Made by a program: the position numbers
In this document: positions 3,001 to 9,000 of the stretch, piece after piece
Position numbering within the stretch: the stretch's first letter is position 1
How the letters are laid out: each line of letters opens with the position of its first letter
Virus record (IMG/VR): IMGVR_UViG_3300037678_000008
Span: 1-12,369 of that record
Reading direction: 5' to 3' (one strand)
Source: a virus
Taxonomy: Duplodnaviria > Heunggongvirae > Uroviricota > Caudoviricetes
Length of the DNA: 12,369 bases

Positions 3001-6000
3001 TTGAAGATCTGACAAAGCCTGTCAGCGAAATCATCACCAATGCCAGCGCACGTGTACCTCTGTTAACCATTGAGCAGCTTGCGGAGATCTATAGTCAGGC
3101 CGACTTTATTGAATCCTGGCTAAAGGCAGTACGGGACCGGGTTCACAATGAACTCAATGCCGGACATCCGGTACCGGGGTTTAAACTGGTAACAGGAAAA
3201 CAAGGTAACCGGGCCTGGAGTGATGAAGAAGCCGCCCGCGCGCTGCTGAAAGACCAGTTCCGTTATAAAACCGAGGAGGTTTTCGATCTTAAGCTGATTA
3301 GCCCAACCAAAGCCGAAAAACTTATCAAAAAGGCCAGTCCGCGCCGTTGGTCAAAAGTCGAGGCACTGATAACACGAGCTGATGGTAAACCAACCGTCGT
3401 TCCCGAGTCGGACCCACGCCCCGCACTCAATATCAACCCTGTAAATGATTTCGACGACGTATCCGACGATACGCTCGCCGCAGACCTCATCTGATTAAAG
3501 GAGACTTTCATGAAGATTAAATTAAATAACGTGAGATTAGCTTTTCCTGCTCTGTTTGAAGCTAAAACTGTAAACGGCGAAGGCGATCCGCGTTTCTCCG
3601 CAGTATTTTTAATGTCTCCCAAACACCCACAACTGGAAGAAATCCGTAAAGCTATGAAGCAGGTAGCGAAGGAAAAATGGGGGGAGAAGTGGGAGTCCAT
3701 TTATAACCAGCTGGAGAAAAAACTCAATCTGTGCCTGCATGATGGTGATGAAAAAGCAGAGTATGAAGGCTTTCCCGGCAATTTCTTCCTGAACGCAGCT
3801 AACAAAGCGCGCCCAGCTGTTCTTGATCGCGATCGTTCGCCACTAATTCAGGCTGATGGACGTCCCTATGCAGGGTGCTATGTAAACGCCGTTATCGATA
3901 TCTGGGCACAGGACAATAATTTCGGTAAACGCATTAATGCCTCACTCGGCGGAGTCCAGTTCCTGCGAGACGGCGATGCATTCGCTGGCGGCGGAGTGGC
4001 AAGCGCTGACGATTTCGACGATATCAGCGAAGGTGCTGATGCTGAAGCACTGATATAAGGATCAAATGGTGGGCGCTCATCGCCGCAGCCAATGACGACT
4101 GTGGCGGTGACGGAAAGAGAGCAAAAACCAGGTAGATTTGTTAAAGGCGCAGCGGGTGGTTGGCCCGCCGCACCTTAAGTACGTTTCCTGCTGTTACAGG
4201 AACAGCAGGATCAGCTGCAGAACAGCAATGACGATTCTGATAATCTGCTTAAGCAGTTCTCTGTGATCCGCCATCCGTTTTTCCTTTCATGAAAGGAATG
4301 CAGTCGTTCAGCTCAGCCCTTCCGTTTCCTCCGGAGCTGAACGAGTGCCACGTTGGTGCGTGCACATCGCATTCCAGGCCAGGGCTTTGACGACACCACT
4401 CGTTTCAACGGAGAAAAACCGGCGTCTCAGCAAGGAATGCGGGGCGTTAGCAACAACAGGCGGCATTTTAGCGAAGGTGTGTATGAGGAGCTACTTTAAG
4501 CTTGCAAAATTTTGCAGGCTTCCCGATAATCTCCTCGTTGGAGCGTGCACACCGCAAAATCAGCAGTAAAGTAAAAACCCCTGTTCCTCACCAGCTCAGG
4601 GGTTTTTGCTGTCCGTAAAATCACCACGTTTGACAAATCCGCCAGAGCTATCGCATACTGGCCGCACTACAACGTATAGCGGTCAACCGCACCCGATAGC
4701 TTTGCGGCTTTTTTATGCCTGTTTACAGGTATCGCCATATCTATGGCGGGTCGAGAGAGCCTAATACAACACCCTTTCGGGGAATACGCTCCGCCGTCTA
4801 TACGCGGTAGTTGAAGCCCGCCACCCTACTACCCTGATATTGACTCATCGCCCCCTTCCGGTTTATGCTCACCGAATCTCCCAAATGGAGATCGGGATTT
4901 GCAACCCGGAATTGTTAGGGGCGACACCAGACGCGCCAGTGTCTTTTTTATTGTCGCAAGCTTTGCCACGTTCGCATTATGGCGGGCTGGCGGGGGCGCT
5001 TCGGCGCGCCGGTTTCCTCTAACGCCGGTATTGCAAACCTCGTCAGTTCGCCACCCATATGAGATTTGCAACTCAGTGGTGGCGGTGAATTTCACCGTTA
5101 GAGGTAACAGTGATGGCAACTCAACTCATCCCCGTTTTCAACGGCGCTATCGCCAACGAAACCACCCTGCTCTGCAATGCTCGCGATCTGCACGCATTCC
5201 TTGGGGTAGGGAAAGTGTTTGCAGCGTGGATTACATCACGAATTGCAGACTATGAATTCGTTGAAAATCAGGATTATATCGTAACGTTTTCCAAAACTGG
5301 AAAGCGTAAAAATGTTCTTTGTAAGGACTACCACCTCACTCTCGATACAGCCAAAGAACTGGCGATGGTGGAGCGCAACGAAAAAGGCCGCCAGATACGC
5401 CGATACTTCATCGAGTGCGAACGCAAACTGCACCAGCAATCCTCCACGATACTGGCGCCACACAGGGAGTGTCTGCCGAAGATGGTTTACCATCACCGGA
5501 GCAAATACAACCCGTACAGAGCTTACGCATGGGACGGAGAGAAAAGCGTTTACGTCGGGTGCTATCCGACTGTGGATGAGGCTGTCGCTGCTCAGGAACG
5601 CTTCTACCGGAACGGCAGCACGAAACGCATTCAGAAGGCGCAGACAGCAGTCAGTGACGCAGAGAAGGAGATGTTCATCAACAATCTCCGCGCCGTCTGT
5701 CATAACTTCCGGCGCATCAATGAAATCTGGCGGGCGCAGTTAATGCCTGCTCTCGAAAAAATGGATTCGAAACTGGTTTACCAGTTGCATGACCGCTTCA
5801 GCGACAGCATGTGCATTCTGCCGACCATAGAAGACCGCATCGGCAGATATATCCCACCCACTTTACCTCGTTAATCCTTCAGTTCGCCCCTGCTCAGCCA
5901 GGGGCTTTTTATCACCGTTTAATTTACGGAGGACTTCGTTTTGTCTGAAAACACTGATTTAAAAAAGCAAAGTATCAGACCTGTAATATCATTTGGCCTG

Positions 6001-9000
6001 ATACTTACTTGCATCTATTTTCAATAATTGGGAATTATACTTCTTTATAACGCCTCGTCCCGGAAAAAGAAACCAAAACATAAAAGCCATCCATATACAC
6101 AGCAACATTAAAACAGCGCCCATTCCTATAAAAACAGCGCCATAATTTAACGACCAACAGAAAAATATCAAGCCATCAGCCAAATAAAAGATAGAAACAA
6201 CTTTAGAACACCAGCGACATCGTTTGTATTTACCTTTGTAGCGTATAAAGAATCTATCGTATTTACACTGAATATGGGGTGCTAAATAACCCCACTGCCA
6301 AAACGGCATTTTCAATTCAGAATACGTTCTGACATAAATAACTAACGTTCTTAATTTCTGGCTACTTATACCTAATATACTTTTTTTAACTTCTCTTTTG
6401 ATTTCTGCCTTCATAAACTCTACATCAGAAGGCTCAATATGCTCCGGATAATTCTTCAGAATATGCGAGAATTTTGTTGTTTTCGGTAAAAACCAACTAG
6501 CATCTTTAAATAACTTATAAACACCGACTGGTGCAGTTATGGCTGAAATTATGACTCCAACAAGTGAGATAATATCTTTCGTATCCATGTAGCTAATTCT
6601 TCGGAGTAAATACAATGTCCAATATACTATGGGGCGACCTGGAAACTTTCTGTGAAATACCTATCAATAATGGCACCCATGCGTATGCCGAAGGCGTTGA
6701 AGTGATGCTTTTCGCATGGGCTATCAACGACGGGCCAGTAAACGTGTGGGATATCACTGCCGGTGGTGGTATTCCACACGGCTTATACGAAGCAATCGCA
6801 GACCCTGAAACCCTGCTTTATTTCCATAACTCTCACTTCGACCGCACCGTTCTGCGTTATGCAATACCGCGACTGGCACCGCCAGTCGAACGTTGGCGCG
6901 ACACAATGGTGCAGGCGCTGGCGCACGGTCTCCCGGGGTCTCTGGGGGAACTCTGCGAAGTACTAGGCGTCCCGCAAGACAAAGCGAAGGACAAAGAAGG
7001 TAAAGCGCTGATCCAGCTGTTCTGTAAGCCACGTCCGAAAAACAGCAAACTGCGCCGTGCCACCAGCAAAACCCACCCGGAAGAATGGCGGCGCTTTGTT
7101 GCTTACGCCGGACTGGATATCGAGGCAATGCGCGAAGTCTATAAACGTCTACCGAAGTGGAATTATCAGGGGACAGAGCTGGCGCTCTGGCATCGTGATC
7201 AGCAGATCAACGACCGGGGCGTCTGCATGGACGTGGAACTCGCACGCGCTGCGATCGACGCGGTAGACCAGGAACAAAAGCGCCTGGCAAAGCGTACACA
7301 GGAAATGACTGATGGCGAAGTGCAGGCAGCCACACAACGAGACGCGTTGATTAAGCACATTGTTGAATCCTACGGTGTGGAGCTACCAGACATGCAACGC
7401 AGTACTCTGGAACGTCGTATTGCCGACCCCGATTTACCATCTGCCGTGAAAGAACTGCTGGCTATCCGCCTGCAGGCCAGTACTACCAGCACCAGTAAAT
7501 ACAAGGCACTGATGAAAGGCGTAAGCCACGACGGGCGCTTACGCGGTACGCTACAGTTCTGCGGGGCGTCACGTACCGGTCGTTGGGCCGGACGGCTATT
7601 CCAGCCCCAGAACCTTCCCCGCCCTTCACTAAAACAGGAACAAATAGACGAAGGCATCGAAGCACTGAAAGCCGGATGTGCAGACCTGCTGTTTGACAAT
7701 ATCATGGAACTAACCAGTTCAGCGTTACGTGGCTGCATTATCGCGCCAACAGGCAAAAAACTGGTGGTAAGTGACTTGTCGAACATTGAAGGCCGTATGC
7801 TGGCATGGCTGGCGGGAGAAGAATGGAAACTGAATGCATTCAGAGAGTACGACGCCGGAACGGGTCCGGACTTATATAAACTGGCGTATGCAAAAGCTTT
7901 CGATATTGCACCAGATGATGTTGATAAACACATGCGTCAGATCGGTAAAGTCATGGAACTCGGTCTGGGTTATGGAGGTGGTGTATCGGCTTTCATCACT
8001 TTTGCTCTGGTTTACGGTCTCGATCTCGACGAGCTGGCGAACGCCGCACTGCCAAACATTCCCCGCGATGTTATCCACGAGGCGAAAAGCTGGTACGACG
8101 AATCGGTTAAACGCAAGTCAACCTACGGGCTTTCTGAACGGGTATTTATCGCCTGCGACTCACTTAAACGTCTCTGGCGCCGGGCGCATCCCGCGACCTG
8201 TGATTTCTGGTACGAACTGGAGCGCACCGTCCGCACTGCAATCGCCACACCGCAAAAAACATTGTATTGCGGTTATCTTAAAATCCGCCGCGATGGCGCG
8301 TGGCTGCGCATACAGCTACCATCCGGACGCGCTGTATGCTACCCGTCTCCGGTTATCGAAAAAGGGAATATCACCTACATGGGGGTTAACTCTTATTCGC
8401 GTAAATGGCAACGACTCAAAACCTACGGCGGAAAGCTGGTGGAGAACATCACCCAGGCGGCCGCCCGCGACATTCTGGCCGGAAACATGCCGCTTATCGA
8501 AGATGCCGGTTACAGCATTGTGCTGACGGTACACGACGAGGTGATCACCGAAGCACCTGACACAGAAGATTTCAACGATAAAGCGCTTTCCGCGCTTCTC
8601 TCCACTGACCCCGAATGGGCGCCCGATATCCCACTGAACGCTGGCGGTTTTGAGGCGTACCACTACAAAAAAGATTGATATAACTCACCTTATCGAGCTA
8701 TGGCGACATGCTGAATTCGAGTAAATTAAAGGAACAATACTTATGCAGGAACTAACTGAAATGCCGATCACCTATCCATACCCGAGAGAAACTTTTCCTG
8801 ACTTTTTGAGGGAGTGTGGGTTCACCAATTTTTCCCACGAACAGCGTGAGACTTGTGACTGCTATCGTTTAACGAATGGCGTAATTGTTAACCTTTACAC
8901 CACCCGGACCATTCAGTTTCAAGGTAACCCTCAAGAACGTCCCAATGTTGAAACTGCAATAATGACCCATTTAGGAACGCCGCCCACGGCAACACCACTA

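Follow-up and report, generated by a model that had tools for sequence, protein, structure and literature searches.

A 199-residue minus-strand gene in the replication operon of a temperate phage is very probably a genuine single-gene accessory cassette. It lies in a 12,369-nucleotide stretch of a Caudoviricetes genome (IMG/VR record IMGVR_UViG_3300037678_000008, positions 1 to 12,369; hereafter the window), directly beside the start of the family A DNA polymerase gene, and is referred to below as the cassette gene. Comparison with related prophages places it in a fixed, tightly packed and hypervariable slot bounded by the DUF2815 and polymerase genes, in which the gene runs antisense to the early replication operon. 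From hydropathy and structure modelling, its product is predicted to be an inner-membrane protein. We propose by analogy, and at even confidence, that this protein serves the lysogen in an anti-phage capacity, through phage exclusion or abortive infection. The gene and its immediate surroundings are as follows.

5989..6588, minus strand: cassette gene, coding sequence (CDS); open reading frame (ORF), RefSeq CDS at the identical locus, hydropathy, dN/dS and AlphaFold2 model.
3510..4058, plus strand: DUF2815, an Enc34-type single-stranded DNA (ssDNA)-binding protein, left flank of the slot; Pfam PF10991, E = 8.6e-45.
6615..8678, plus strand: family A DNA polymerase, right flank of the slot; Pfam PF00476; in 159 E. 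coli genomes.
6589..6614 (26 bp), no strand: divergent spacer from the cassette gene ATG to the polymerase ATG; read directly from the sequence; both ribosome-binding regions lie inside it and it is part of the variable cassette.

Gene call, base composition and selection

Mechanical calling returned a minus-strand ORF of 208 amino acids (aa) at 5989..6615 with a TTG start. We take the ATG at 6588 to be the likely start of the cassette gene, since the resulting 199-aa product agrees with the RefSeq CDS WP_000379840 at the identical E. coli locus, where it carries the name 'hypothetical protein', and with all homologues. The initial annotation had described an A+T-rich, opposite-strand membrane-protein gene starting 26 bp from the polymerase ATG, and the gap is indeed of that length. 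Windowed calculation also upheld the deviant composition: the CDS has a G+C content of 34.5% and the interval 5958-6615 one of 34.0%, against 49.8% for the remainder of the window, and G+C at third codon positions (GC3) is 33% in the cassette gene versus 41-60% in adjacent genes. In a 600-bp G+C scan of the window (mean 0.495, standard deviation 0.034), the minimum of 0.337 fell at the cassette gene, the lowest value elsewhere being 0.412. The earlier hand count of 30-32% G+C was slightly low, and the neighbourhood that had been called G+C-rich is at ~50-54% in the flanks; the low-G+C part of that description stands. By ORF evidence the gene is one of only two minus-strand genes in the window, as had been stated, the second being an Arc-like ORF at 10344-10673.

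Pairwise comparison across five loci gave dN/dS values of 0.11-0.33 for the cassette gene, with synonymous divergence of up to about 2, and of 0.04-0.13 for the polymerase, which points to purifying selection that is looser than that acting on the polymerase. The ORF length of 199 aa is retained down to 50% identity. Judged from these codon comparisons, the cassette gene is shown to be real and under purifying selection. A non-functional origin, as a chance ORF in an A+T-rich spacer or as a decaying pseudogene, would account for a gene with no database annotation and no recognisable promoter; it is effectively refuted by the retained length, the dN/dS values, the 34 clusters of homologues described below and the pLDDT of 89 reached with the family alignment, and we give it next to no credence.

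A hypervariable slot between DUF2815 and the polymerase

A search of 5,426 complete E. coli genomes found the polymerase in 159 of them, in most cases at 95-99% identity. Between slot variants, similarity starts and stops exactly at the DUF2815 stop codon and the polymerase ATG. The occupants recorded in E. coli were the following, the Nmad5 and SIR2 counts being cassette-sequence matches whose slot position was confirmed only in the loci fetched.

20 of 159 genomes: the 199-aa gene, as two alleles with 68% protein identity.
67 of 159 genomes: a 209-aa minus-strand gene.
About 59 of 159 genomes (cassette-sequence matches): an Nmad5 gene together with an unrelated 229-aa antisense gene.
8 of 159 genomes (cassette-sequence matches): a SIR2 gene.
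At least 1 genome: no occupant, a 76-bp spacer.

Roughly half of the E. coli examples have a member of the membrane-protein family in the slot; the 229-aa antisense gene of the Nmad5 cassette was considered as a further member and rejected as unrelated. Presence at this junction is variable among close relatives, with the 199-aa type in a minority of the genomes and at least one slot empty. Together with the deviant composition, the opposite strand and the gene's own terminator, this variable presence supports the initial annotation's reading of the gene as a moron. Prophages of E. coli, Klebsiella aerogenes, Citrobacter and Morganella fill this slot, always on the same strand, with at least four types (199, 209, 233 and 211 aa) that are only about 20-25% identical. 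Across these loci the slot proteins share 20-68% identity, while the polymerase is 77-99% and DUF2815 59-99% identical. E. coli relatives with different cassettes have DUF2815 proteins that are 98-99% identical; polymerase identity is likewise 98-99% at loci whose cassette proteins share only 23-68%. Between the window and one E. coli relative (locus L002), synonymous divergence is 0.53 in the cassette gene, as against 0.066 in the polymerase gene and 0.139 in that of DUF2815; this excess over the flanks argues that the alleles were exchanged and did not diverge in place. Packing on both sides is close, with 20-46 bp between the start codons of the gene and the polymerase in all slot types, and 26-52 bp between DUF2815 and the gene in relatives.

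An orphan family

A word-indexed search recovered 13 clusters only, all of them at least 46% identical, and an exhaustive profile search of 1.84 billion protein representatives recovered 34 clusters, mostly of 190-261 aa with a few shorter fragments. All family clusters are named 'hypothetical', and every organism named by a source belongs to the Enterobacterales: E. coli, Klebsiella aerogenes, Enterobacter, Citrobacter, Rahnella, Rouxiella, Serratia, Xenorhabdus, Morganella and Pantoea. The phage orthologous group phrog_10579 is matched by 31 of 32 members, the window protein matching it with E = 6.9e-4 over residues 38-192. The 199-aa subfamily and the 209-aa type have the same architecture, and hhalign relates them with 94.9% probability (E = 4.8e-8) at a BLASTP identity of 23%, which makes the 209-aa protein a distant homologue of the 199-aa protein. 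A tblastn search of 50,697 phage records with the 199-aa protein found no match, and in the phage-record search the 209-aa type turned up in no more than three phages, all of them induced from E. coli. The literature yielded no account of these proteins by accession, by DUF2815 or DUF2800 in combination with defence, or under SieA-like subjects. This is a small, undescribed orphan family, and it is confined to mobile elements.

Protein architecture and predicted structure

Hydropathy analysis resolved three hydrophobic segments in the 199-aa protein, at residues 5-25, 129-148 and 150-176, in agreement with the flanking hydrophobic helices claimed at the outset. Applying the positive-inside rule, we infer a cytoplasmic location for a ~100-aa domain and for the tail. 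The predicted layout then has the N-terminus outside, a first transmembrane helix (TM1) at 5-25, the ~100-aa cytoplasmic helical domain, a TM2/TM3 hairpin at 129-176 and a basic cytoplasmic tail. The basic, Cys-containing middle of the earlier description is partly retained: the CKYDRFFIRYKGKYKRCRWC stretch is present, at residues 108-127, but the Cys do not hold up as a conserved feature, with none of the three conserved in the family.

AlphaFold2 given a shallow alignment of 13 sequences produced an unusable model (pLDDT 54.6), and given 32 diverse family members produced one with a pLDDT of 89 and a pTM of 0.69. This model consists of TM1, four cytoplasmic helices, a short β-hairpin at an FFI(R)Y motif, the transmembrane hairpin and a C-terminal helix. 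The family as a whole follows the same plan, with an N-terminal transmembrane helix, a helical domain of ~100 aa, an FF(I/Y) β-hairpin, a transmembrane hairpin and a C-terminal P...N tail. P176 and N185 are the only near-invariant positions in the 32-sequence alignment, both in the tail past the last transmembrane helix, and the alignment contains no conserved candidate catalytic residues. Foldseek returned no specific structural match for the model among solved or viral predicted structures, and a sequence search of the Protein Data Bank with the family profile returned no match. The model thus describes a confidently predicted fold that lacks a recognisable structural relative among the structures searched.

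Signals for independent transcription

Two features flank the coding sequence on its own strand.

5955..6010, minus strand: intrinsic-terminator-like hairpin and U-tract; identified by fold energy; kept in five loci.
6621..6656, minus strand: candidate promoter of the cassette gene, in polymerase codons 3-14; suggested by a conserved 13-mer and kept rare codons.

The convergent terminator attributed to the gene by the initial annotation was recovered as a minus-strand hairpin at 6010-5965, with a stem of 6010-5995 / 5981-5965 and a 13-nt loop that contains the stop codon of the gene. It folds at -19 kcal/mol (z = -3.45; 0 of 200 shuffles were as stable) and is convergent with the AntA terminator at 5886-5905. 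Across five loci, 96% of the cells in the stem are paired and there are two compensatory pairs, five loci being too few for a statistical claim. A consensus terminator scan did not report the hairpin, which we attribute to the length of its loop. Read on the plus strand, the hairpin has no T-run after the stem; the terminator should thus act on the minus strand only, and early-operon transcription should pass.

Given a spacer of only 20-46 bp, any promoter of the antisense gene must sit within the polymerase gene. The candidate elements there are a -10-like TATATT/CATAGT (6621-6631) and a -35-like TTCACA (6651-6656), which together reach a consensus score of 6.5 against a random median of 6.0, that is, not above chance. 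The 13-mer CCATAGTATATTG (reverse complement, polymerase codons 2-5) is invariant in five loci, including the Enterobacter locus L016, in which the polymerase is destroyed and the 13-mer survives in the remnant at about 7950-7990. Polymerase codons 3-6 (window 6621-6632) read AAT ATA CTA TGG and include two rare codons. The rare ATA and CTA are present in seven of seven examined Enterobacteriaceae loci with an antisense cassette, including one with the unrelated 229-aa cassette, and the pair is not kept in empty-site and SIR2 relatives; a Morganella locus with a cassette keeps ATA and not CTA. On the strength of this conservation, we take the 13-mer as a candidate -10 element.

The initial annotation had also reasoned that the polymerase promoter must lie inside or overlap the insert. 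This finds no support: the polymerase is internal to a long operon, and strict and position weight matrix (PWM) scans of the plus strand inside the insert gave no promoter candidate exceeding chance.

Other genomic settings and what they imply for function

All members examined have a G+C content of 29-36% within flanks of 44-55%. Away from the polymerase, a P2-like prophage carries one member between gpS and gpV, oriented with the late genes; in a lambdoid early operon another, next to kil and an anti-RecBCD gene, runs antisense; one adjoins a 1273-aa SIR2 protein on a conjugative element; and one is on a Pantoea plasmid. Two loci of the polymerase type are in decay. In Citrobacter (L014) the gene is intact amid a frameshifted polymerase, a frameshifted DUF2815 and a truncated DUF2800, and in Enterobacter (L016) the intact gene is surrounded only by a 33-aa DUF2815 stub and a dead polymerase start. 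A Xenorhabdus island with a family member codes, in addition, for a Tad2-like protein (anti-Thoeris family) and a HicA toxin (L027 4404-5150), alongside tail-fibre-assembly remnants.

These settings bear on whether the gene is an accessory of the phage life cycle, its product anchoring or organising DNA replication at the membrane, or the gene itself acting in cis as a brake on the polymerase by transcriptional interference. Such a role would suit a position that is kept between the ssDNA-binding and polymerase genes from Morganella to E. coli, and a promoter that probably overlaps the polymerase start. It is weakened because the gene is dispensable and found in unrelated elements: close relatives with the same replication genes have SIR2, the Nmad5 cassette or nothing in its place, and the members in the P2-like late operon, the lambdoid early operon, the conjugative element and the plasmid are all without this replication module. 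The gene moreover outlives a dead polymerase and lies on the strand opposite to the operon that it would serve. A life-cycle role therefore strikes us as distinctly unlikely.

The intact gene in two decaying prophages would also be consistent with an addiction or toxin-type membrane protein, one that stabilises the prophage or its remnant or kills stressed cells under the control of antisense read-through or an unseen RNA, and that is not primarily anti-phage. A small membrane protein without conserved catalytic residues, encoded antisense inside an operon, would fit this description, as would the Xenorhabdus and Enterobacter members, which lie in islands with toxin-antitoxin genes. Three observations argue otherwise: i) a 199-aa protein that includes a folded cytoplasmic domain does not look like a type I toxin, ii) the cassette, with 20-46 bp upstream and 26-52 bp downstream, is without an antitoxin partner or a conserved antisense RNA gene, and iii) such extreme diversification at a fixed position is rather what one expects of proteins in contact with components of phages. 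We consider this explanation unlikely.

A defence-rich operon in Shiga-toxin prophages

The anti-phage reading gains context from the operon in which the cassette gene resides. The window covers the replication or early operon on the repressor side, in the order 300-aa protein, NUMOD4/HNH endonuclease, DUF2800 nuclease, DUF2815, AntA, cassette gene, family A polymerase, TIR, VRR-NUC and further genes. Its sequence is 99.5-100% identical to regions of seven E. coli chromosomes, and in one of these the region belongs to an stx2b-bearing prophage inserted beside yfhL; among the seven is STEC1590, which is listed with an Stx2b prophage at yfhL (PMC12029490).

The SIR2 occupant of the slot is a 493-aa protein (L012 925-2406) that matches the PADLOC candidate PDC-S25 with E = 4e-157. 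After the polymerase, the window carries a 253-aa TIR gene (8743-9504; Pfam CAP12-PCTIR_TIR, E = 2.9e-31; PDC-S35, E = 6.8e-109), and this position is a second variable slot, with TIR in some relatives and ANR/DUF4406 or HATPase genes in others. The abortive-infection protein BstA lies between VRR-NUC and the helicase in O103:H2 12009 (L004 7853-8782, E = 2.5e-110). An antisense HATPase protein follows the polymerase in L013 (4572-5600), and DUF6338 is found in such slots in other relatives. The replication operon thus has at least three positions for interchangeable cargo, and known or candidate defence genes are found in them. A defence-type function of the cassette gene, as the initial annotation had guessed, would fit this neighbourhood of TIR, BstA and SIR2, a fit that is only suggestive.

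The same context admits a role in lysogenic conversion, with the gene altering host traits that have nothing to do with phages, for example envelope stress, tolerance of colicins or antimicrobials, or colonisation. In its favour, the gene is a moron in a Shiga-toxin prophage and encodes a membrane protein, and the three-helix topology is Tol/Ton-like, though the TolQ, ExbB and ZorA top matches are non-significant. The protein, however, gives no signal of any known function, and the family is hypervariable, confined to mobile elements and co-located with defence genes, not virulence genes. We place this explanation at the same low level as a life-cycle role.

A proposed exclusion function

Returning to an anti-phage function, a model for the cassette can be outlined. 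In the lysogen, the gene would be transcribed from a promoter inside the first polymerase codons, and its transcript would end at its own one-way terminator. The protein would act at the inner membrane against superinfecting phages, either by blocking DNA entry, as does SieA of phage P22, or by membrane abortive infection. Upon prophage induction, transcription of the early operon would run on through the antisense cassette gene and switch it off. If this is true, the switch-off by antisense read-through during prophage replication would be a built-in means of avoiding self-exclusion. A stronger version of the proposal is that the family constitutes a new, structurally unprecedented class of inner-membrane exclusion proteins, parallel to SieA but unrelated to it, encoded as interchangeable alleles in a dedicated slot, with a promoter in the first polymerase codons and made only while the early operon is silent; this we offer tentatively, as a possibility that is on balance doubtful.

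Several observations weigh against an anti-phage function. The window protein and the 32 family members have no significant match in Pfam, NCBIfam or the defence models of PADLOC v2 (PADLOC-DB v2.0.0). Strict and PWM scans upstream of the cassette gene found no sigma-70 consensus promoter above chance. That the family accompanies this replication module all the way from Morganella to E. coli may instead reflect a function in the phage's own life cycle, and an addiction or toxin gene would be just as likely to persist in decayed prophages. The company of defence genes is suggestive at most. Homology to SieA was examined and found no support: hhalign assigned probabilities of 1.8% to P22 SieA and 1.3% to the HS1 type B protein, and the SieA group phrog_7745 was matched by 0 of 32 members. 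This comparison used the P22 type A and E. coli HS type B sequences, since the SieA copies in phage databases are ~99% identical and offer no deeper profile.

An A+T-rich antisense moron in a prophage is of an ordinary kind; what stands out here is the undescribed family, the fold without recognisable relatives and the allelic replacement in a fixed slot of a defence-rich operon. Accessory slots of prophages are a main source of new anti-phage functions, and this one sits in the replication operon of a widespread group of prophages in E. coli, Klebsiella and Morganella, including Stx2b phages at yfhL. As a well-defined single gene that is easy to clone, the cassette gene is a candidate for a new mechanism of exclusion or abortive infection, and the allelic series, 20-68% identical within near-identical flanks, is ready material for mapping specificity.

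The AntA module as the recent arrival, and other features of the window

In the window, the cassette gene is separated from DUF2815 by an antirepressor module.

4059..5951, plus strand: C4-RNA/AntA antirepressor module, 1.9 kb; Pfam AntA; Rfam C4 and sRNA-Xcc1; own terminator at 5886-5905.
5952..5962, plus strand: CACTGATTTAA, remnant of a second DUF2815 3' end, stop codon included; compare CACTGATATAA at 4048-4058 and the DUF2815 end in L002, L014 and L015.

Within the module, Rfam reported above threshold a C4 antisense RNA at 4975-5058 (70.6 bits) and sRNA-Xcc1 at 4745-4830 (60 bits), and below threshold isrK at 4876-4949, a c4-a1b1 target at 4863-4912 and an ohsC-like element at 4537-4612. 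The AntA CDS spans 5113-5874 and is followed by the strong terminator. The ~690 bp at 4059-4745 contain no convincing ORF. Part of the module resembles antirepressor regions of Stx phages.

The initial annotation had pictured the membrane-protein gene as an insert wedged between the AntA-like and polymerase genes. A one-off insertion there was not borne out; the newcomer is the AntA/C4 module. The module is missing from L002, L003, L015, L025 and L029 and separates the cassette from DUF2815 in the window phage only. The remnant CACTGATTTAA marks the boundary between the AntA insertion on its left and the ancestral cassette on its right. The duplicated DUF2815 3' end and the 26-52 bp spacing in relatives together indicate that the AntA module, not the membrane-protein gene, arrived recently, and that the ancestral order is DUF2815, cassette gene, polymerase, as seen in L002 and in Klebsiella, Citrobacter and Morganella. 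Expression of the polymerase in this phage would have to get past the AntA terminator, which precedes the gene on its own strand, by antitermination or read-through, or else start from an unrecognised promoter; none of the three was identified.

Upstream of DUF2815, a NUMOD4/HNH_3 homing-endonuclease gene (1682-2200) lies between the 300-aa gene and the DUF2800 gene, overlapping the start of the latter by 8 bp. It is not present in L002 and L003, which suggests another mobile insertion. Toward the far end of the window, two Arc/ribbon-helix-helix-like ORFs, at 10199-10375 (plus strand) and 10344-10673 (minus strand), have nearly identical N-termini (MSKRDDPQLRVRIP...) and 3' ends that overlap by 32 bp. 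The locus L001, whose polymerase locus is 100% identical, diverges from the window after about 10200, with an IS1 nearby.

Comparison with known systems

The stator proteins MotA, TolQ, ExbB and ZorA resemble the family in their three-helix topology and similar length, and they recurred as non-significant top matches in Foldseek. Membership was rejected on several counts: Foldseek gave E >= 0.44 and a TM-score <= 0.28 (about 0.25), Pfam MotA_ExbB (PF01618) was matched by 0 of 32 members, and hhalign against E. coli TolQ gave 0.6% probability. The cassette, a single gene set off from conserved neighbours by the short spacers given above, has no TolR-, ExbD-, MotB- or ZorB-like partner gene. SieB (Pfam PF14163) was likewise rejected: the window protein matched no Pfam family at E <= 10, and SieB did not appear in the Pfam listing of the 32 members. 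The two-transmembrane (2TM) effectors of the SLATT and CBASS type gave isolated weak matches only, namely RTasSLATT at E = 0.049, DUF4231 in 2 of 32 members (best E = 0.024) and a 2TM effector in 1 of 32 (E = 0.0015).

Among known morons, phage P2 carries orf30, fun(Z), tin and old, and HK97 carries gp15, which is likewise a membrane protein made by the prophage. The gpS-gpV position of the P2-like prophage member is one that we take to be the site of the non-essential, low-G+C orf30 of P2; the family member there lies on the late-gene strand. The BstA, SIR2 (PDC-S25) and TIR (PDC-S35) cassettes resemble the cassette gene in genomic behaviour, being single genes, often antisense, that occupy equivalent variable slots in the same operon and vary between near-identical prophages. 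They encode soluble proteins with recognisable effector or DNA-binding domains, whereas the membrane family lacks any recognisable domain and matches no defence model.

The nearest parallel is SieA of P22, a 164-aa inner-membrane protein with three transmembrane helices, of which three types that are ~25% identical share one slot (PMC10883804). Like the cassette gene, sieA is a single A+T-rich prophage gene (33.7% G+C) set antisense between conserved operon genes, and the P22 record annotates a promoter of its own. Both proteins are laid out as TM1, a cytoplasmic region, a TM2/TM3 pair and a short cytoplasmic tail; both come as several ~25% identical types per slot, and both are restricted to Enterobacterales. 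The sole conserved motif of SieA (phrog_7745), FxRYPxEAxxFNK, lies past its last transmembrane helix (PMC10883804). Where SieA has its tail YPGE..FNK, the family carries (F/Y)P(G/S)x(K)xIxx(Y/I)N, with a P-to-N spacing of 9 versus 7 and without the EA. The tails are reminiscent of each other, for example in PGE..(Y/F)NK when family member P0017 is set against HS1 SieA. The two differ in the cytoplasmic domain, which has ~45 aa in SieA and ~100 aa in the family, and in location, the SieA slot lying between the gene 16 and gene 9 homologues of P22-like prophages and the family slot between DUF2815 and the polymerase of another phage type; no family member examined sat in a P22-like prophage. By analogy, then, the family probably works like SieA or like a membrane abortive-infection protein, which is a different statement from calling it a SieA.

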